A stretch of 64,000 bases of DNA from Squalus acanthias (taxonomy: Eukaryota). The position numbers and the translations under genes are program-made. The stretch covers positions 75,766,001 to 75,830,000 of the forward strand of contig CM059432.1 of NCBI GenBank assembly GCA_030390025.1, in the 5' to 3' direction. Shown here piece after piece: positions 2,918-58,590 of the stretch; the stretch's first letter is position 1, and each line of letters begins with the position of its first letter. The notes below the pieces were generated by a model that was not told the origin of the DNA, did not search any database, and saw only the letters and a program-made list of their open reading frames with translations.

Positions 2918-5190
2918 GGCCCAAAAATTTGTGTTGATACGCGAGAGTACAAAAAACCTCCCTGGGATATCGGGAAAAATAGGGACATTGGCAAAGGAGG
3001 AACTGACGCAAATCAATATCTCTAAGGATATGGTGTTAAGGAAGCTAAAGGGATTGAAGGCGGACAAATCCCCAGGGCCTGATAACATGCATCCTAGGGT
3101 ACTGAAGGAGGTGGCCCTAGAGATAGCGGATGCACTAAGTATGATTTTTCAGAATTCATTAGACTCGGGAACAGTGCCCATGGATTGGAGGGTAGCTAAC
3201 GTTACCCCACTATTCAAAAAGGGGGGTAGGGAAAAAGCAGGTAATTACAGACCTGTAAGCCTTACATCAGTTGTGGGCAAAATGCTGGAGTCCATCATTA
3301 AGGATGAAATAGCGGAGCACTTAGCAAATGGGGACAGGATAGGACAGAGTCAACATGGATTTACAAAGGGTAAATCGTGCTTGACTAATCTATTGGAATT
3401 TTTTGAGGGAGTAACTGGTAAAATAGATGGGGGAGAGCCAGTAGATGTGGTGTACCTGGACTTCCAAAAGGCCTTCGACAAGGTCCCACATAAAAGATTA
3501 GCATGGAAAATTGAAGCTCATGGGATAAAGGGGAAAGTATTGACGTGGATAGAGAACTGGCTGTCAGATAGAAAACAGAGAGTTGGAATAAACGGCTCAT
3601 TTTCTGAATGGCAGGCAGTAACAAGTGGGGTACCACAGGGATCTGTCCTGGGTCCCCAGCTGTTCACAATTTACATTAATGACCTGGATCAGGGAGTCGG
3701 ATGCAGCATTTCCAAATTTGCAGACGACACTAAACTAGGAGGGGGGGTGGGCTCAGAGGAGGAGACCAGAAAGCTCCAGAGCGATTTGGACAGACTGGGT
3801 GATTGGGCGGATAAATGGCAGATGCACTATAATGTGGACAAGTGCGAAGTTATCCACCTTGGGTGCAGGAACGGGAGGGCAAATTATTATTTAAATGGCA
3901 ATAAATTGGGAGAGGGGGAAGTACAGAGAGACCTGGGTGTTCTTGTACACCAGTCACTGAAGGCGAGCATGCAGGTTCAACAGGCGGTCAAGAAGGCAAA
4001 CGGTATGCTGGCCTTCATAGCAAAAGGGTTGGAATACAGGAACAGGGATACCTTGCTGCAGCTGTACAGGGCACTGGTGAGACCACACCTCGAGTACTGT
4101 GTTCAGTTTTGGTCGCCTCATCTGAGGAAAGATGTTCTTGCCATGGAGGGGGTGCAGCGGCGATTCACCAGGCTGATACCAGGAATGGCGGGATTGACCT
4201 ATGAGGAGAGACTATGTAGTTTAGGGATGTACACACTGGAGTTTAGAAGATTGAGAGGGGACCTCATAGAAGTGTATAAAATTCTGACAGGTCTAGACAG
4301 ACTAGATGCAGAAGGAATGTTTCCCTTGGCGGGTGAGAACAGAACTAGAGGACATAATTTAAGGATAAGGGCTAAACCATTTAGGACAGAAATGAGGGGG
4401 AATTTCTTCACTCAGAGGGTGGTGAACCTGTGGAACTCATTGCTACAGAGGGCAGTGTACGCCAGCTCATTAAATATATTTAAGAGGGAATTAGATATAT
4501 TTCTACAGGCAAAAGGGGTTAAGGGTTACGGAGAGAAGGCGGGGACGGGATACTGAATTGGAGGATCAGCCATGATCTCATTAAATGGCGGAGCAGGCTC
4601 GAAGGGCCGGATGGCCTACTCCTGCTCCTATCTTCTATGTATCTATCTATGTATCTATGTAGTACGCACTGTGTACTCTCGCGTATTCTGTCTCCAATTG
4701 CCGGTTTTCTGCATGCACTGCGCATGTGCTGAAAACCGGCACTTGGTGAATGGAAAAGGGGGCGGTTCCTAGGTGAACCGCGTGCGCGCTACAGACTGCG
4801 CGCATGCAGTGCACTTAGTGGTTTCAACGCGCAGGTAAGTATTTAAAATGGTTAATTTATTTAACTATACTTATTTTATTAATGTGATGGTTTTTTTTAA
4901 ATTTAATTGAGGTTTAGCTGTTCTTTTGGGGGGCTATAGTATTCATAGCTTTCACAGCACTTATGTGAAAGTTATGAATGGAAGATGGTGTGCTGCCATT
5001 GGCTCTAACTGAGTCACGTGATCCCACAGCTCCCACGAATTAACTGCGCCTGTGGGATACGCAAGCCCAGCACAGCAGCTGTCCAGAACATCAAGTTCGT
5101 GCGAGCTGGAACTGAAAAAGCCAACGCGCAGTGAGAGATCGCGGGGAAGCCTTACCCTCGCACGAAGGCTTCCTCACGAATTTTTGGGCC
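2918..5190. mobile_element. MITE family B inserted in MITE A, itself carrying a CR1
   Basis: TIRs GGCCCAAAAATTTGTG / CACGAATTTTTGGGCC with TTT TSD (2915-2917, 5191-5193); internal part recurs at about 25990-26461. Confidence 0.8.
2951..4660 (+). mobile_element. 5'-truncated CR1 LINE with uninterrupted RT and C-terminal ORF2 frame (to 4556)
   Basis: KSPGPD, NYRPVSLTS, QHGF, DFQKAFD, GVPQGSVLGP, FADD motifs; CR1 3' hairpin and CTATGT tail; AGTAC TSD at 2946-2950 and 4661-4665. Confidence 0.95.
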
Positions 5191-27480: not shown

Positions 27481-28701
27481 TACTTGTTGGTCAGATTCAA
27501 TAATATGGACTAGAGTATAAATTACCAAAGCAAGTTTACCGATCAGATACAATGAGGACACAGGGACGAAAAAAAATGCCAGTTCTTGCTCTATGGCCAT
27601 AACTTTCAGCATTTTATTTTTTGTATACAAAGAAATAGAGGTCCACAAAATATGAGCTTTCTTAAATCCATGAACATTGCATAAAATAATTCAACAGCAT
27701 AAAACCCAAGCATTTCAGAGAGGATTATTAATGAAATGTTATCAGGTGCATTTTTGGACAGTAAGATCAAAGCAGGAGACAGCCAAAATGTATTTTTTTT
27801 GCTGTTACAAGTAGCTTAACTACCCTGCTGGGAAGATGTATGATCGGGACATGAATGACTTTTGCCGTGATTACTCTTCTCTCCCCTATCCACTGTTGAA
27901 TAGTCTGCCAACATTCACTATCTAGACTCACAGATGAAGAATGACCACTTCAACAAGCTATCTGAAGAGTACTGTTGCCATAGAAAAAATCTTGACAGGA
28001 GAAAAATGGGCTAACTACAAAATGGTAGTGAAATGAGCACTTTTTCTCACTGAGAATTTGTAACAGGCAGCCTTAATGCACAGCACTGTTTCAAAAGGAG
28101 CAATTGTGGTTCACCCTCACTGGCCTAGAAATTGGATTGAGCTGTTCCCATTTTACAGGCATAAACCAGGTGCCTAAGGGTCCAATATGGTGGGGACCAT
28201 GCGCGCAGCTCACTCTGTGCCAGAAGTGTGCCGCCCACCATATTGGGTAGGACTCCTCCGTAGGAGTCCAGGATAAATGCTGGAAACATGCATTAGGCCC
28301 TTTGAATATGCAAAAAGGGAGTCTAATGCTTGTTTCAGGCCCCTTTGCGAAATTGGATTGCAAATGAGCGCAGCGTGTGTGGTGCATGCTGTGGCCTGCC
28401 TGGGAGAGGTCATCTATTTTCCCTGTCTACTGGTAAATAATTTTAGAGCAGAAGGACAGGCTAGGGTGTGTGGCCCAAAAAAGTGTTCTTTATACAAATG
28501 CACGGAGTATAAGGAATAACTTGAATGAACTGCAGGTGCAAATTCAAATTGGAGGGTATGACATGGTAGCCATTACTGAGACATAGCTGCAAGACGGTCA
28601 GGGCTGGGAACTAAATATACCAGGTTACAAGGTCTACAGGAAAGATAGGGAAAATGGCAGCTAGTGATTAAGGATGAAATCACTTCAATGATAAGAGAGG
28701 A

Positions 28702-28963
28702 TTTTTTTTTATTCATTGGATGTGGGCATCGCTGGCAAGGCCAGCATTTATTGCCCATCCCTAATTGCCCTTGAGAAGGTGGTGGCTGAGCCGCCTTGAA
28801 TACAACTGAGTGGCTTGCTGGTCCATTTCAGAGGGCAGTTAAGAGTCAACCACATTGCTGTGAGTCTGGAGTCACATATAGGCCAGACCGGGTAAGGACG
28901 GCAGATTTCCTTCCCTAAAGGGCATTAGTGAATCAGATGGGTTTTTACGACAATCTGGTAGTT
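28702..28963 (-). mobile_element. SINE sharing its body with the 5' UTR of the LINE at 55061-56905; poly(A)-tailed, head lost
   Basis: 28801-28963 closely matches 56647-56775; AATAAA and A-tail on the minus strand. Confidence 0.75.
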
Positions 28964-28964
28964 T

Positions 28965-30715
28965 CTACTAAGGCTGCAACTTCGCCAACCGAGGTGGGTC
29001 CGGGGCGGCCGGGGTCAGTAGCGTGGTCCCAGCCCGCTGCCTGCTCCAGCCCGCTCTCTCCAAGTGATTTTCCTTTGATTGGGCTTGTTAAGCTCACCCA
29101 GCGAGGTTCCCGGCCAATTAAAAGGAAGCGGGTCTGATGACGTCATGTGATTTCCTGGTTTCCTTAAAGGGGCCATGTCCAAATTGATTTTGACAGTTGT
29201 GCTGTCAGTGTCTACAGCATTGAGGTGCTGCAAACACTGACAAGCACTGCACAAAGGTGCAGGGCTGCACCTAGGCTCTCCCATGATTCCCTCCATATGC
29301 TTATGGAGGGAGTCACAGCACGCTGGGAGGTTCTCTTCCCTTCAAATGGGCGGAAGAGACCTCTCCAGGAGACCAACGCAGCCTGGTTGCACATTGCACA
29401 GGAGGGCACAAGCAGGGATGTCGTCAGGAGGACCAGGCTGCAGTGGCGCAAACCTTTCAATGATCTCAGTAGATCACGAAACGTTATTCCAAGCTACACT
29501 CAACCTCATCCTGCTGTGCCACACATCACATCCCCATCACTCTGCCTTCCCTACCCTACTCCTGCATATCTTTACTCACACCAACTTACCTTGCACCTCC
29601 ACCCATCCCTCTCTATCTACATTATCACTTCTCCATCTCACTAGCCACCCCTCACATTCACCCTCATCCTACTGCAAGCATATCAACTAACAACACACAA
29701 GGGTAGGCACTTGGGTGATTTAGCCAATGTTCATGTGAAGATTCTGGTAATGTGCTGTCAAACATTGAAGTCTTTATGTTCAACATTTTGCCTTCTTGGA
29801 CAGATTTGTGTACACCTTTGGAAGTTGCAGTAAATGGTGAGACATAAGGGTACCGCCCCCCCCCCCACAATGGTGATGAGTGTGAAAGGAATGGCTTGGA
29901 CATTGTAGGGATGCTTTATGGTGCTGGTGTGGGGTGGTACCAACCTGGCATATCATGTGGTAGCCAGGGTGTACAGCGTCAAATGAAGTAAATCTGGCCA
30001 TGGTGAGGCCATCACTGGCATCCTGGGCAGCAATGTGGTCGGGTGCTGATGACTTGTGCCCTGTGCAGCATCAGATGATGGTGTTGAAGTTTGGTGCTGT
30101 TGTTGGTGATGTTGGTGTTGGGGCTGATCGTGGAGGGATTCTGAGGACCAAGGTGAGATTTTTTGAAGGGCACCGATGTTGCTGGAATAGATGGTAGCTG
30201 AAGTTGAGATGACAGAAGCGATCTGTCAGTGGTGAGAGAGGTTGCTCCAACGAGGTGACAGTGGATAGAGAGTTTACTCCAAACACTTCCAAACTGCATA
30301 CAGCTCAAAAGTGTCTTCCAAATCCTGAAGGCTCAAGCTTCTGACATTGGAAATTGAACAGCTGCGAAATGGGAGCTTTTATACCACTTTTGCAGCTGTC
30401 ACCTATTCACAGCAATGGAGAGTCATCGAGAACCCGACACACTTACCTGACGTGATCCCCGAGCGACAGGAACCTTGTGGAAAAGTTGGAAAAATGCCTA
30501 GAAGGGGTAAAATGCTGTTTGACTACATTTAAAGACCCTCTTAACTATCTCAATTGGCTGAGTGCTGAGTCTGCAAAGCACAGGCAGACCCCACACTTGG
30601 GAAACTGACACAGAGGCAGGTCAGAGCGGGATCCCGACCCGCTGTCAATCTTTTAGATTTTGACAGCGGACCCACCTCCGAACCCGCCCTCTGAGCGGCG
30701 GCAAAATTCCGGCCT
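28965..30715. mobile_element. Decayed Harbinger remnant (H4) in reverse orientation, H2-like
   Basis: Myb/SANT exon 1 on + (RAAPRLSHDSL...WLHIAQE...WRKPFNDLSRS, about 29255-29480); transposase C-tail on - (IAAQDASDGLTMARFT, about 29990-30040); terminus AAAATTCCGGCC. Confidence 0.7.
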
Positions 30716-50192: not shown

Positions 50193-53100
50193 ACATAAGA
50201 AATAGGAGCAGGAGTAGGCCATACGGCCCCTTGAGCCTGCTCCGCCATTCAATACGATCATGGCTGATCATCGACCTCAACTCCACTTTCCCGCCCGATC
50301 TCCATATCCCTTGATTCCCCTCGAGTCCAAAAATCTATCTATCTCAGCCTTGAATATACTCAAAGACTCAGCATTCACAGCCCTCTGGGGCAGAGAATTC
50401 CAAAGATTCACAACCCTCTGAGTGTAGAAATTCCTCCTCATCTCAGTCTTAAATGGCCTACCCCTTACTCTGAGACTATGCCCCCTAGTTCTCGACACTC
50501 CAGCCAGGGGAAACAACCTCTCAGCATGTACCCTGTCAATCCCCTTCAGAATCTTGTATGTTTCAATGAGATCACATCTCAATCTTCTAAACTCCAGAGA
50601 GTATAGCCCCATTCTACACAATCTCTCATCATAGGACAGCCTTCTCATCTCAGGAATCAATCTAGTGAACCTTTGTTTCACCACCTCCAAGGCAAGTATA
50701 TCCTTCCTTAGATAAGGAGACCAAGACTGTGCGCAGTACTCCAGGTGTGGTCTCACCAAGGCCCTGTACAATTGTAGCAAGACTTCCTTATGTCAACCCC
50801 CTTGCAATAAAGGCCAACATGCCATTTGCCTTCCTTATTGCTTGCTGTACCTGCATGCTAGCTTTCTGTGTTTCTTGCACGAGGACACCCAAATATCTCT
50901 GAACACCAACATTTGAAAGTTTCTCACCATTTAAAAAATATTCTGTTTTTCTATTCTTCCTACCAAAGTGAATAACCTCACATTTCCCTACATTTTACTC
51001 CATCTGCCACCTTACTCCCACTCACTTAGTCTATCCATATCCCTTTGCAGACACTATGGGCTGGATTTTGTCTTGGGGTCGGGTTGGGGTCGTGTTATCC
51101 GCATTTCGTGTTCCCCACCCGACTCCAGATTAATGTGGATCAATGATGCAATTTTCACTTAATTGGGCAATTGAGTTCTAGCATGTGGGAACCCATGAAC
51201 TAATTAGTGGTTTGAGTCTGAAAGTCGCCTCTGATGATGTCATCATTGCTGACTGGTCTCAGAGATTGTCTGGCTGTTGGTGAGAGAGGAGCCTGGCTTT
51301 TGATGTGAGTGGACCTGGATGGGGGTGACGAGAGAGAGAGAGAGAGCATTTTTTGCATCCAAGTCCTCTCACAGCAAAGGCCATGCAGTCTCTAAAGATA
51401 TTCAATGCAGTAGCATCAGAGGCGACTTTCAGACCTAATACTACTACTACTACCACCTTCATCACATCTCCGTTGTAATAGTGGACCTGCAGCCGATAGT
51501 CAGCTATCCACTTGTGCTCCCGCCAGGTTTCACTGGAGTGTTTCACACCAGGCGTGCTTCACGTCGGAAAAGGGTTAAACTAGCTAAAACGTTTCAAAAT
51601 GGCATTACAGAGCCAATTTAGGGCTTGTTAAGGGCTTTAATGGCCTCTCCCGCCTCTTGGAGGCGGAACGGAGTCGGGAACCCCATGACTGATTTTGTCA
51701 AAATTGCGTGGAGGTGGGATGGAGTCGGGATGGGGTCGGGACCCCCGACCCCGCAAATTTAACCCCCCACACGCCTCCAAACCCGACTCCATGGGTCATT
51801 CAAAATCCAGCCCTTTGTGTTCTCCTCACAGCTTACTGTCCCTCCTAGCTTTGGATCATCAGCAAACCTGGATACATTACATTTGGTCCCTTCATCTAGG
51901 TCATTAATATAGATTGTAAATAGCTGAGGCCCCAACATTGATCCTTGCGGCACCCCACTAGTTACAGTCTGCCAACCTGAAAAAGATCTGTTTATCCCTA
52001 CTCTGTTTTCTGTCCGTTAACCACTCCTCTATCCATGCTACTATATTACCCCCAACCCCATGAGCCCTTGTGTAATAACCTTTTATGTGGCACCTTATTG
52101 AATGCCTTTTGGAAATCCAAATATACTACATCCACTTGTTCCCCTTTCTCTACCCTGCTAGTTACATCCTCAAAAAACTCTAATAAATTTGTCAAACACG
52201 ATTTCCCTTTCATAAAACCATGTTGACTCTGCCTAATCTTGTTATGATTTTCTAAGTGCCCTGATACCACTTCCTTAACAATGGATTCCAGCATTTTCCC
52301 GACGACTGTAGTTCCCTGTTTTTTCTCTCCCTCCTTTCTTGAATAGCGATGTTACATTTGCGACCTTCCAATCCGCTGGGACCGTTCTAGAATCTAGGGA
52401 ATTTTGGAAGATCAAAACCAATGCATCCACTATCTCTTCAGCTGCCTCTTTTAGATTCTTTTAGAACCTTAGAATGTAGGCCGTCAGGTCCAGGGGATTT
52501 GTCGGCTTTTAGTCCCATTAGTTTCTCTAGTACTTTTTCTCTACTTATATTAATTATGTTAAGTTCCTCATCCTCATTAGACTCTTGTTTATCCACCATT
52601 TTGGTATGCTTTTTGTGCCTTCTACAGTGAAGACAGATACAAAATATTTGTTTAACGTTTCTACCATTTCCTTATTCCCCATAATATTTTCTCCTGTCTC
52701 AGCCTCTAAAGGACCAACGTTTACTTTTGCTACTCTCTTCCTTTTTACATACTTGTAGAAGCTCTTACAATCTGCTTTTATATCTCTTGCTAGTTTTCTC
52801 TCATTCTATTTTTTTCCTTTTTATCAACTTTTTGGTCAACCTTTGCTGGTTTCTGAAACTCTCCCAATCCTCAGGCTTACTATTATTCTTTGCAACATTA
52901 AAAGCTTCTTCTTTCAATCTAATGCTATCCTTAACTTCTTTAGTTAGTCACGGTTGGATCACTTTTCCTGTGGAGTTTTTGTTTCTCAATAGAATGTATT
53001 TTTGTTGAGAATTATGAAATATTTCTTTAAATGATAGCCACTGCTTATCTACCACCATACCTTTTAATCTATTTTTCCAATCTACCTTAGCCAACTTGCC

Positions 53101-54725
53101 CCTCATACCTATGTAATTGGCTTTATTTAAGTTTAAGACTCTAGTTTTGGACTTAGGCAAGTCACTCTCAAACTTAATGTGAAAGTCTATCATATTATGA
53201 TCACTCTGCCCCAGAGGATCTTTTACTATGAGATTGCTAATTAACCCTGTCTCATTACACAATACAAGATCTAAAATAGCTTGTTCCCTGGTTGGTTCCA
53301 TGAGGTATTGTTCTAGGAAACTACATTCCATGAGCTCAACCTCCAGACTACCTTTGCCAATTTGATTTGTCCAGTCTATATGAAGGTTAAAGTCCCCCAT
53401 GATTATTGCATTACCTTTGTTGCAAGCTCCTACTATTTCTTGATTAATATTCTGTCCAATGGTATAGCTACTGTTAGGGGGCCTATATACTACTCCCACC
53501 AGTGTTTTCTACCGTTTGTTATTCCTTATCTCCACCCATACTGATTCTAGTTCATGATCTTCCGAGCTGAGATCCTTTCTCTCTACTGTCCTCATGTCAT
53601 CCTTTATTATCAGGGCTACTCCCCCTCCTTTTCCATTCTGCCTGTCTTTTCAAAATGTCAAGTACCCTGGAACATTTAGTTCCCAACCTTGGCCACCTTG
53701 CAACCACGTCTCTGTAATGGCTATTAGATCAAACCCATTTATCTCTATTTGTGCCACTAGTTCATCTATCTTGTTACGAATGCTTTGTGCATTCAGATAA
53801 AGAGCCTTTAATTGAAATTTTTTACCATTATTCCCTGCTTTGACCTTATTTTCTGCTGCCCTGCTACCATTAAACTCTCTGTTCCTTCCTGTCTCACACT
53901 GCTTATTTTTATCCAAATCACTACACTGCTCTCTTGCCTTGACCTTTCTCTTTAGATTTCTAAATTTCCCCTCACCTGACCCCCCCGACCCCCCTTTTTT
54001 AGTTTAAAGCCCTATCTACAGCCCTAGTTATTCGATTTGCCAGGACGCTGGTCCCAGCCCGGTTTAAGTGGAGCCCGTCCCAATGGAACAGCTCCCTCTT
54101 TCCCCAGTACTGGTGCCAATGCCCCATGAATTGAAACCCCTTCTTCCCACACCATTCTTTGAGCCACGCATTTAACTCTCTGATCTGCTTGACCGTATGC
54201 CAATTTGCGCGTGGCTCAGGTAGTAATCCAAAGATTATTACCCTTGAGGTTCTGCTTATTAATATAGACCCTAGCTTCTCAAACTCCCTTAGCAGAACCT
54301 CATTCTTAGTTCTACCTACGTCGTTGGTTCCTACATGGACCACGACAATTGGATCCTCCCCTTCCCACTCCAAGTTCTCCTCCAGCCTTGAGGAGATATC
54401 CTTAATCCTGGCACCGGGCAGGCAACACAGCCTTCGGAACTCTCTTTCGCGACTGCAGAGAACAGTATCTATCCCTGACTATACTGTCCCCTACTACTAC
54501 CACATTCCTTCCTTCTTCCCCAACTTGGATGGCCCCCTGTACCACGGTGCCGCGGTCAGTTTGCCCATCCTCCCTGCAGTCCTTTTCCTCATCCATACAG
54601 GTAGAAAGTATCTCATACCTATTGGATAAGGTCCAGGTCTGAGGCTCCTCCATCACTGCATCCTGGGTCCCCATTCCTCCCTGTCCCTGACCACTGACGA
54701 ACTCTAAAGTACTAGTTAACCTAAA
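50193..54725 (-). mobile_element. Near full-length degenerate CR1 LINE with esterase-type ORF1 and EN/RT ORF2
   Basis: ORF1 SGNH-like motifs VVVGDSIVR and VHVGTND (53999-54674); EN motifs YLNAQSIRNK, AITETWL, GVVYRPP, GDFN, SDH; RT fragments; 3' tail. Confidence 0.93.
51058..51813. mobile_element. H2-family MITE (family D) inserted in CR1 RT
   Basis: TIR GGGCTGGATTTT / AAAATCCAGCCC; reverse complement of 44781-45501. Confidence 0.9.
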
Positions 54726-55060
54726 GTATCATCAAAGAGAAGTTACACTGAGCTGTATTTAATAAGAAATTAGTTTCCTCGCCTCCGCCTTTGAAGATGA
54801 GAATTAGGAAGAACATGATAAATAATTAAGATGTACTTCATGTATTGTGGACACCGTTTTTCAGAAGAAGCGCTAATTATTTACGGGATCTATAATTTTA
54901 AATATTTTAAAAGATGTGTTAGTTAAAGGTAATTTTTGAAAGAAATCTTTGTATTTTTAGTGGACTTCCAAAAGGCGTTTGACAAAGTGGCACATAATAG
55001 GCTAGCCGGCAAAGTTGAAGCCCATGGAATAAAAGGGACAGTGGCAGCATGGAGACAAAA

Positions 55061-56905
55061 TTGGATTGGATTTGTCCTGCTTTTTGTGGACAGGTCAAAC
55101 CTGGGCAGTTTTCCACATTGTCGGATAGATGCCAGTGTTATAGCTGTACTGGAACAGCTTGGCTAGAGGCCTAGCTAGTTTTGGAGCACAAGTCTTCAGC
55201 ACGACAGCCGGGATGTTGTCGGGGCCCTCAGCCTTTGCTGTATTCAGTGCGTTCAGCCATTTCTTTGATATCACGTGGAGTGAATCAAATTGCCTGAAGA
55301 CTGGCTTCTGTGGTGGTGGGGGCCTCAGGAGGAGGCTGATATGGATCATCCACTCGGCACTTCTGGCTGAAGATGGTTGCAAATGCTTCAGCTTTGTTTT
55401 TTGCACTTACATGCTGGGCACCACCATCTTTGAGGATGGGGATATTCATGGAGCCTCCTCCTCCCATTAGTTGTTTAATGGTCCACCACCATTCACGACT
55501 GGATGTGGCAGGACTGCAGAGCTTTGATCTGATCCGTTGATTGTGGGATCGCTTAGCTCTGTCTGTAGCATGCTGCCTCCGCTTTTTAGCATGCATGTAG
55601 TCCTGTGTTGCAGCTTCCCCAGGTTGGCACCTCATTTTTAGGTACGCCTGGTGCTGCTCCTGGCATGCTCTTCTACACTCCTTATTGAACCAGTGTTGTT
55701 CCACTGGCTTGATGGCAATGTTAGAGTGAGGTCTATGCCAGGCCAGGAGGTTACAGATTGTGGTGGAATACAATTCTGCTGCTGCTGATGCCCCACAGCG
55801 TCTCATGGATGCCCAGTTTTGAGCTGCTAGATCTGTTCTGAATCTATCCCATTTAGCACAGTGGTAGTTCCAGACAACATGATGGAGGGTGTCCTCAGTG
55901 TGAAGACGGGACTTCGTCTCCTCAATGACTGTGCGGTGGTCACTACTACCAACGCTGTCATGGACAGATGCATCTGCGACAGGTAGATTGGTGAGGATGA
56001 GGTCACATAGGTATTTCCTTCGTGTTGGTTCTCACCACCTGTCGCAGGCTCAGACTAGCAGCTATATCCTTCAGGACTCGGCCAGCTCGGTCAGTAGTGG
56101 TGCTACCGAGCCACTCTTGGTGATGGACATTGAAGTCCCCCACCCAGAGTACATTCTGTGCCCTTGCTACTCTCAGTGCTTCTTCCAAGTGGTGTTCAAC
56201 ATGGAGGATTACTGATTCATCAGCTGAGGGAGGGCGGTAGGTAGTAATCAGCAGGAGATTTCCTTGCCCATGCTTGACCTGAAGCCATATGAGTCAATGT
56301 TGAGGACTCCCAGGGCCACTCCTTCCCAACTGTATACCACTGTGTCGCCACCCCTGGTGGGCCTGTCCTGCCGGTCGGACAGGGCATACCCAGGGATGGT
56401 GATGGAGGAGTTTGGGACATTGGCTGAAAGGTATGATTCTGTGAGTATGACTATGTCAGGCTGTTGCTTGACTAGTCTGTGTGACAGCTCTCCCAATTTT
56501 GGCACAAGTTCGCAGATGTTGCTGAGGAGGACTTTGCAGGATTGACTGGGCTGGGTGTGCCGTTGTGGTGTCCAAAGCCAGTGCCCAGGTCGATGCCAGG
56601 TGGTCCGTCCGGTTTTAGTCTTATTGTTTTTTGTAGGGTTTTCTTTTACAACTGAGTGGCTTGCTAGGCCATTTCAGAGGGCAGTTAAGAGTCAACCACA
56701 TTGCTGTGGGTCTGGAGTCACATATAGGCCAGACCAGGTAAGGATGGCAGATTTCCTACGATAATCTGATAGTTTCATGGTCACCATTACTGATACTAGC
56801 TTTTTATTCCAGAGTTATCTTAACTAACCGTGGTGGGATTTGAACTCACATTTCAGGATCATTAGTCCAGGATTACTAGTCCAGTAGCATAACCACTATG
56901 CTACC
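55061..56905 (-). mobile_element. Non-LTR retrotransposon (CR1/L2-group, distinct from the other CR1s here): tRNA-derived 5' head, no ORF1, EN domain and RT start; 3' part missing
   Basis: A-box TAGCATAGTGG (56903-56893), B-box GTTCAAATCC (56845-56836); PDIVILTESYL, GDFNVHH, WFNKEC, KAEGPDNIP...LKTCAP..LAKLFQ, PVHKKQDKSNP. Confidence 0.85.
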
Positions 56906-57715
56906 ATTCCCAGTGTTACCACTGAGTCAATCAAATCCATTTCCAAGTTTGGATCGAGTGTTACAACAATAGAAGTGTTACGAATAATGTGCGACAGAAA
57001 ACGCGTGAAGGGGAAAGTGTTATAGAAAGTAGTCTGACACTTATAGGAAGTGTATGTTACGCGGGAAATGTTTAATACATTATAGAACTGTTTAAATGGA
57101 GAAACCAGTGTCTAATGATGCTAGAAGCAGCAGAAAAAAAACTACAAAATACCATGAGAATTATTTCATTGCTAGTGACATTGTTGATTAATTTACAAAT
57201 GATTTATTGAATTTGCAAACCTTTCACTGAAGGAAATGTAATGGAGGTCCTTGCACCTCACATCCAGACTCTCTCAGGGCTGACTTTGACCACCTCTCCA
57301 TTTCCAAATTTGGATCAAGTGTTGGATAGAGTTTAATAAAATAAAAGCAGGCTTTTGAGAGTCATAAAGCAGGTTATCAGTCAGTACAGCCAAGCCACGT
57401 GCTAAGCTGTAACCAACTCCAAAGAACACATAATTATGCCTGATTCAGCAGGCTTTATTCTACCCACAGCTGAGCAATATAACTGAATCAACCAAATACT
57501 CCACCTGCACACACAGTAATTTCTGAACTTACGAACATGCATTCTGCTGTGTCTCAGAAGCTACATGGCAGTGGACTTATGTTAATACACACAGTCAAAC
57601 ATAATCATCTTTTCTCAATTCCTGGTAACAGTGAGTGACAGCCAGAGGTAACTCAAACCTGGAGTAAAAGAGCAATATTTTCCAATTACTACCACTACTG
57701 TGCAGGCTCTCCTAC

Positions 57716-58590
57716 AAAAAGAAAAGAAAGGCTTACATTTATATAGCCCCTTCGTAGGCTGCACCCAGGGAAACCAGCCCTAAGGATCGCTTGCAACAAA
57801 GAAGGTAAGTAACTCACCTAAATATGGAGCTGGGAAAAGCAGGAGTGCTCCTCCCAACCCCACTTTTAACCCTCCTCCCAATCGCCGCCATACCTGACCC
57901 CCAATTTTTTCGCTCCCAGCCTCCTTTCCCGACCCCTGATCCTGACTGACCAGGGGGTTTAGAACTGCCTCAAGGTGAACTAATTTTGGAAAGGGGACCT
58001 CAAACAGGCCTTAGGGCCCTCATTTGCTCAAGAAAAGGGTCGAACGTCTGTTCAGGCATGGGTAAAGGATACCTTGTAGTTGTGCTTACCAATATGGTGG
58101 GCTGCGCACTTCCTCCTGGAAATGTGCGCATACTTCCTGCCCGCCATATTGAGGCCTTAGTAGTCCGTGTAGCGCCTGAAAAATGGGTGCTGCGTGGACC
58201 AATTTCTAGGCTTTGAAGTGTAATCACTGTTGTAATGTAGGAAAAGCAGCAGCTAACTTACGCATAGCAAGCTCCCACAAACAATAATAAAATAAATGAC
58301 CACATTATCTGTTTTTTGGGTGATGCTTGAGGAATAAATATTGGCCAGGACACACTCCCCTGCTCTTCTTCGAATATTGCCATGGGATCTTTTACATGTA
58401 CCTGAGGGGGCAGGCGGGCCCTTGGTGTAAGGACTCATCCGAAAGACGGCAACTCCGACAGTGCAGTACTCCCTAAGTACTGCATTGGGTGTCAGCCTGG
58501 ATTATATGCTCAAGTAGACTGGAATCTCTGGAGTGGGGCTCGAACCCACAACCTTCTGACTTAAAGGTGAGAGTATTACCACTGAGTCAA
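57716..58590 (-). mobile_element. Near full-length Deu-SINE interrupted by a decayed MITE-like segment (about 57752-58211)
   Basis: A-box TGACTCAGTGG, B-box GGTTCGAGCC, Deu core, and tail GCTATATAAATGTAAGCCTTTC. Confidence 0.8.

Follow-up and report, generated by a model that had tools for sequence, protein, structure and literature searches.

LINEs are conventionally regarded as Pol II transcripts, and elements transcribed by Pol III as short and non-coding. Zenon elements of sharks and rays are LINEs that lack ORF1 and carry poly(A) (Stuart et al., 2026; PMC13343379), and the supplement of that paper provides seven elasmobranch Zenon consensuses from five species (CarCar, HypSab, RhiTyp, ScyCan and SquAca). 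SINE pieces within LINE leaders are already known, and RTE-1_DAn and related elements represent an RTE LINE that holds tRNA-like sequence (Kojima, 2018; PMC5786205). The IGR IRESs of dicistroviruses, 142–168 nt in length, initiate translation at a GCU or ACA codon behind an anticodon mimic (PMC10275262; PMC10516663; PMC12221177).

The window analysed here is a 64,000-nucleotide stretch of the Squalus acanthias genome (contig CM059432.1, positions 75,766,001 to 75,830,000). Its minus strand carries a LINE copy that, from a comparison of the first 400 nt by eye, is a member of the elasmobranch Zenon family, with the following features (window positions):

55063–56911, minus strand: decayed Zenon LINE copy, tRNA-headed and 3′-truncated, covering family positions 2–1928 of about 3310
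56828–56911, minus strand: tRNA-Ser-like head (Rfam tRNA match, copy alignment, similarity to the tRNA-Ser(AGA) gene of the genome)
56893–56903, minus strand: A box, predicted element of a Pol III type 2 promoter (sequence)
56836–56846, minus strand: B box, predicted element of the same promoter type (sequence)
56647–56760, minus strand: conserved leader block, ~150 nt in intact copies, with 35 nt deleted in the window copy
56652–56677, minus strand: predicted terminal hairpin (folds and pair-keeping variants among 99 copies)
56672–56664, minus strand: in-frame ATG-GCC-TAG mini-frame inside the hairpin (sequence)
56667–56661, minus strand: 7-nt anticodon-like loop of the hairpin (fold)
56646–56648, minus strand: in-frame TAA preceding the long frame, carried by 78 of 99 LINE-type copies
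56637–56635, minus strand: codon conserved as GCT in the family, CCT in the window copy (copy alignment)
55925–56535, minus strand: AP-endonuclease domain, broken by frameshift (PF14529, E 5.9e-10; tblastn 74–90% to the family protein)
55063–55924, minus strand: linker, then the first part of the RT region, RT core absent (sequence, family alignment)

The copy shares 91% identity with the family majority sequence in alignment and is dead: it ends at 55063, lacks the RT core, and its frame is broken near 56290, 56029 and 55266. The initial annotation, made from the sequence alone, had described a tRNA-like head running through a SINE-like body into an AP-endonuclease, with no ORF1 and no ATG at the endonuclease start. 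The domain, the missing ORF1, the missing in-frame ATG, and the A and B boxes (56903–56893 and 56846–56836) are all as described. The SINE-like body of about 300 nt is indeed there as a leader, but this leader measures ~330 nt in intact copies, of which the window copy has lost 63 nt. What had been taken for a second SINE-head remnant at 56912–56930 is flanking DNA that is not common to the family, the 5′-end of the element being 56911, and within this flank lies an A-box-like word.

A query for the join between head and endonuclease gave 6423 candidate places, the best 40 of which were scored, the window copy among them; 26 of the 39 other places span the whole join. The 37 loci that were fetched have ~3.3 kb in common and unrelated flanks, and a majority sequence was built from 23 fetched loci and the window copy. 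The family layout, ~3.3 kb in length, comprises a tRNA-Ser-like head, a ~330-nt leader, a single endonuclease-RT frame of 972 codons and a poly(A) tail. No other frame in the majority sequence exceeds 120 codons, and the lack of ORF1 holds family-wide, the endonuclease-RT frame standing alone. Full-length copies end in poly(A), with AATAAA motifs at the 3′-end of the majority sequence; beside these copies there were no consistent target-site duplications, only matches of 4–7 nt at chance level. A head-independent sample, consisting of the first 30 of 3730 exact matches to an endonuclease-start motif (two rows being one duplicated locus), contained 19 copies reaching the first 40 nt, three reaching the first 95, six reaching the leader body and two with the frame only, and none of these 30 unselected copies had an alternative shared 5′ sequence upstream of the endonuclease. 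Family copies in the genome number in the thousands. Since exact matches in the genome number 43,036 for a late-frame motif, compared with 3730 for the endonuclease-start motif, most of these copies are 5′-truncated, as is usual for LINE copies.

The join also appears outside this genome. Contigs from two other organisms (runs X10 and X12) bridge leader and frame, and all seven published elasmobranch consensuses open with the same head and match the leader; two hagfish Zenons and one coelacanth Zenon have no head and contain T4 runs (first 400 nt of each, by eye). A chance juxtaposition at this locus of a SINE and a fragment of a headless LINE would agree with the A-box-like word in the flank and with how common short head-plus-tail elements are (17 of 30 unselected leader matches). 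However, the identical join recurs at many loci with unrelated flanks, in the contigs of other organisms and in the published consensuses, so this explanation is refuted and retains next to no probability. The join is a family-wide trait and not chance. A headless sister family was also sought, and with a 70% relative as query only the tRNA-headed family was returned as best matches. Among 80 metagenome loci there was no leader or tail homology, and low-threshold tRNA calls were scattered, none of them at 5′-ends; viral contigs yielded no relatives.

The head can be aligned to the tRNA-Ser(AGA) gene of this genome, in a donor comparison that was aimed at tRNA-Ser only and leaves other tRNA donors unranked. 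Its Rfam tRNA match (56904–56832, minus strand) is sub-threshold, at 23 bits vs. a gathering score of 29 (E 0.41), and ARAGORN called no tRNA on the head of the window copy. In the alignment of the 23 loci and the window copy, the 5′-end of the family is sharp, falling on a G that lies 8 nt upstream of the A box. Column conservation across copies is 97.6% in the B box compared with 92.5% in the stretch of head that separates the boxes, and both head stems stay paired in subfamily variants through A-T/G-T and T-A/T-G switches. By eye, all seven published elasmobranch Zenon consensuses have the A box, and three of the seven have a textbook B box. An array of ~57 tRNA-Ser genes, many at ~1.7 kb spacing, is found at G000:C889:337854-866516.

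Other elements in the window include three pieces of CR1, the longest of which served as a control for T-runs, and a short relative of the Zenon copy itself:

51813–54726, minus strand: CR1 LINE copy whose ORF1 encodes an esterase (GDSL-type) and whose ORF2 encodes an endonuclease-RT
50193–51058: second CR1 piece
54933–55062, plus strand: short CR1-type RT fragment, opposite in orientation to the Zenon copy and adjoining its cut-off point
28698–28965, minus strand: SINE-like derivative, the leader fused to the last ~100 nt of the LINE and poly(A)

A Deu-domain SINE-like sequence, presumably SacSINE1-like, is found at about 57730–58500 on the minus strand, interrupted by other DNA.

The initial annotation had also put the sense strand of 55061–56905 at no TTTT and about five TTT, against about 13 TTTT runs on the opposite strand, and the exact counts are 0, 5 and 13. 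For the window copy alone, base shuffles place the absence of TTTT within chance (P=0.076) and give P=0.0066 for the TTT count. The 3.3-kb sense strand of the majority sequence contains no T4 and seven T3, compared with 18 A4. Against shuffled controls, the proposed avoidance of terminators holds in part. The absence of T4 from the frame does not by itself depart from expectation when codon usage is kept (0 vs. 1.8 expected, p=0.11) or in dinucleotide shuffles (p=0.20), and it does so with codons redrawn (0 vs. 3.6 expected, p=0.016). The shorter runs carry the signal: T3 occurs five times in the frame vs. 11.1 in synonymous shuffles (p=0.003), T-rich 5-mers once vs. 7.5 expected (p=0.005), and at synonymous C/T sites the use of T falls with the length of the run that it makes, from 139/337 for a run of one through 39/141 and 5/40 to 0/2 for runs of four or more (0.41, 0.28, 0.12 and 0/2; p=0.0006). 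The motifs TTTVT, TVTTT, TTVTTT and TTTVTT, which we take to be non-canonical Pol III terminators, are absent from the sense strand of the majority sequence and occur 3–15 times on the opposite strand. Individual copies contain 27 T4 in 151 kb, with 33 of 52 rows free of T4 (a few rows being duplicated); new T-runs are created by 0/30 shared variants vs. 70/710 singletons, a difference that is not significant (p=0.10).

In the comparison with other LINE families, the T-run trend was flat in CR1, in L187 and in 67 pooled relatives. The sense strand of the neighbouring CR1 contains T4 runs, nine of them within 51700–54000. L187 is an unrelated long-frame LINE of the same genome, presumably L1/Tx1-like, with equal T content and nine T4. 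The 67 relatives, which are those of the 80 metagenome loci with a frame of at least 450 codons, are distant (23–42% identity) and mostly T-richer than the Zenon family; T4 is present in all 67, at no fewer than 1.17 per kb, including two with a T content near that of the family, and a milder dip in T use is seen when L101 and L124 are taken singly. A T-run avoidance specific to this family and strand is thus supported. The closest protein relatives of the family share 35–43% identity with it, and some are low in Phe. Four Zenon-like proteins (P0010, P0012, P0013 and P0016) contain 1.6–1.8% Phe vs. a mean of 3.5%, as low as the window family, and their families might also be T-run avoiders. 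L187 itself belongs with L178, L186, L191 and L192 to a young, C-rich LINE family with intact frames of up to 1306 codons and 22–24% identity to the Zenon protein, several copies of which are paired ~7 kb apart.

The first in-frame Met of the long frame is codon 286, beyond the endonuclease. The frame was nevertheless functional and under purifying selection in the past, with shared non-CpG variants being 19 synonymous to 23 replacement, compared with 400 to 1206 among singletons (p=0.006). Of 47 rows, five of them duplicates, 35 preserve the frame through the length variants right after the stop, which are in part triplet repeats, and a basic extension of 30–40 residues precedes the endonuclease in relatives and in the Zenon family alike. 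A functional frame that follows a TAA and has its first Met at codon 286 implies either an AUG-less start or an AUG provided by splicing, and no AUG-supplying exon was common to the 30 unselected endonuclease-start copies. The majority sequence has seven ATGs and an in-frame stop upstream of the frame. Frameshifting from the +1 upstream frame was rejected as a route, as one common variant introduces a stop there, and so was the mini-frame ATG as the true start, given the TAA in frame downstream of it in 78/99 copies. Three published consensuses have no TAA stop between the mini-frame ATG and the long frame, and readthrough from that ATG would therefore be possible there.

By eye, the leader hardly varies over its last 150 nt in five species, comprising sharks and a ray. 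Variants that keep the pairs of the predicted terminal hairpin include G-C to G-T (25 copies), C-G to T-G (nine) and A-C to A-T (eight), and pairs at those positions are broken in 11 copies. The hairpin loop resembles an anticodon loop carrying AGC, and 12 nt past the stem lies an in-frame GCT that all five species conserve. A match between loop and codon triplet is also found in 7/43 comparable hairpins elsewhere in the element, the second base of the loop (U) varies in 24/98 copies, and the loop-codon pairing shows no covariation. The folding energy of the leader is unremarkable (z −1.7), Rfam at E up to 10 recovered no IRES family on the intact leader, and the list of leader helices held no clear nested pseudoknots. 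Ribosome entry through a tRNA-mimic hairpin, at which the conserved hairpin hints, would be rather unlikely. Most of the remaining probability falls to reinitiation or readthrough at the mini-frame, or to a near-cognate start; the former two are live alternatives because the hairpin holds an in-frame ATG-GCC-TAG, and reinitiation has been documented for L1 and SART1 (PMC5972666).

Short derivatives of the LINE accompany the long copies. Among 30 unselected matches to the end of the leader, out of 6167 in all, 13 run on into the frame, and the other 17 skip to the final 60–170 nt of the element. The derivative in the window shares 95% identity with family positions 165–329 and 92% with 3214–3316. 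Joints differ in position between derivatives, and some retain the first codons of the frame. Others lack the terminal hairpin, which is thus dispensable for being copied. The derivatives appear to have arisen repeatedly from the LINE through internal deletion, comparable with the origin of Persaeus from an insect Zenon (PMC6740152) and, given their Pol III head, they probably behave as SINEs. The short elements also include an older subfamily marked by diagnostic changes in the leader (L275, L277, L278 and L290); one member gains a G-C hairpin pair and loses the mini-frame ATG, and others break upstream stems.

Any account of this family must accommodate a head that forms its 5′-end, avoidance of T-runs, an AUG-less frame with a history of purifying selection, and derivatives that keep both ends. 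From these sequence features, we estimate a probability of about 0.6 that, in elasmobranch Zenon, Pol III transcription and AUG-less translation concern the same RNA. An ancestral Zenon would have captured a SINE head in the ancestor of sharks and rays. TFIIIC and Pol III would initiate at the first G, transcribe 3.3 kb and stop at whichever T-run comes first in the flank, which is where Pol III terminates on Alu. An internal terminator would cost the RNA the 3′-end required in reverse transcription, which would explain selection against T-runs. More tentatively, the conserved 150-nt block of the leader may bring ribosomes to the uncapped RNA, and translation may begin at or just past the conserved GCT codon. 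Transcription by Pol III predicts both a conserved type 2 promoter placed exactly at the 5′-end and a loss of T-runs specific to strand and family, and we know of no Pol II pressure that predicts the two together. The weak processivity of Pol III, which limits SINE length (PMC10886601), counts against a 3.3-kb Pol III RNA.

The family could instead be an ordinary Pol II LINE, transcribed from an internal promoter or by host read-through, in which the head is carried along passively or serves the short derivatives only. Its poverty in T-runs would then stem from some other pressure, such as avoidance of U-rich splice or decay signals. Such a LINE would suit the AATAAA motifs at the 3′-end, the precedent of SINE pieces in LINE leaders (PMC5786205), the absence of ORF1 from Zenons of all phyla, headed or headless (PMC13343379), and the finding that two null models leave the absence of T4, taken by itself, within chance. 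Nonetheless, five species share one 5′-end, 8 nt ahead of the A box, LINE-type copies have kept the boxes and the head stems, and two other LINEs of the same genome lack the T-run trend. Ordinary scanning would, moreover, be blocked by the seven upstream ATGs and the in-frame stop. We therefore consider this explanation, Pol II transcription together with a different source of the T-run poverty, to be unlikely. A life cycle split between polymerases is another possibility, with Pol III RNA being copied into insertions and the protein coming from capped Pol II transcripts, perhaps spliced to obtain an AUG. This accounts for the head and for terminator avoidance, since the copied RNA would be a Pol III product, and it makes cap-independent translation unnecessary, in keeping with the lack of an IRES signal in the leader (folding, Rfam); Pol III RNAs are also able to retrotranspose in culture without ORF1 (PMC2666806). 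We judge it improbable, as purifying selection in copying lineages is easier to understand if each RNA encodes its own protein, and no AUG-supplying exon is common to the copies.

If Pol III does transcribe the translated RNA, elasmobranch Zenon would represent a naturally occurring Pol III messenger RNA, whose layout has persisted in both sharks and rays and which has reached tens of thousands of copies in one genome. The boundary between SINEs and LINEs would be erased, SINEs being able to arise through simple LINE deletion, and the 330-nt leader would offer a defined sequence with which to study translation of an uncapped, AUG-less cellular RNA in a vertebrate.

The family is already catalogued as Zenon: the elasmobranch elements of Stuart et al. 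(2026; PMC13343379) have near-identical first 400 nt, the same length of ~3.3 kb, one endonuclease-RT frame, no ORF1 and poly(A). The terms ‘tRNA’, ‘pol III’ and ‘start codon’ have zero occurrences in the main text of that paper, and the head, the T-run avoidance and the missing AUG are accordingly undescribed there. The literature searched, with Repbase, Dfam, subscription journals and bioRxiv supplements outside its scope, described neither a coding LINE driven by Pol III nor a tRNA-headed Zenon, so that the head, T-run avoidance and AUG-less frame were not found in print. The Zenon leader resembles the type 6 IRESs of dicistroviruses in a block of ~150 nt ahead of an AUG-less frame, a candidate GCU start (GCU or ACA in the viral elements) and an anticodon-like hairpin loop (PMC10275262; PMC10516663; PMC12221177). 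Unlike them, it has no Rfam match, no demonstrated pseudoknots and no placed L1.1 motif pair, and its loop-codon match amounts to at most 3–4 bp, compared with a pseudoknot in the viral IRES. A reading built on this analogy, in which a 3.3-kb Pol III RNA would be translated without cap, AUG or initiator tRNA, with a tRNA-mimic leader setting the ribosome on GCT, is rather unlikely. RTE-1_DAn, compared by description only, likewise holds tRNA-like sequence, and belongs to the RTE clade (PMC5786205). Lepidopteran Zenon and its derivative Persaeus offer the same pairing of a single-ORF CR1-group LINE with short derivatives that keep both ends; however, Persaeus is described without tRNA homology or a Pol III promoter, whereas the elasmobranch LINE and its derivatives are both headed (PMC6740152). 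The SINE2 elements of Kojima (2018; PMC5786205) share with the family a head with A and B boxes, a conserved body, a LINE tail and the absence of internal T4. The Zenon head is tRNA-derived and has both boxes, with an Rfam score below the gathering cut-off; the 3.3-kb LINE is neither short nor non-coding, and only the short derivatives are both. Unlike SINE2, these SINE-like forms derive from the LINE by deletion, and whereas SINE2 elements are non-coding, head and body in elasmobranch Zenon constitute the 5′-end of a coding LINE.
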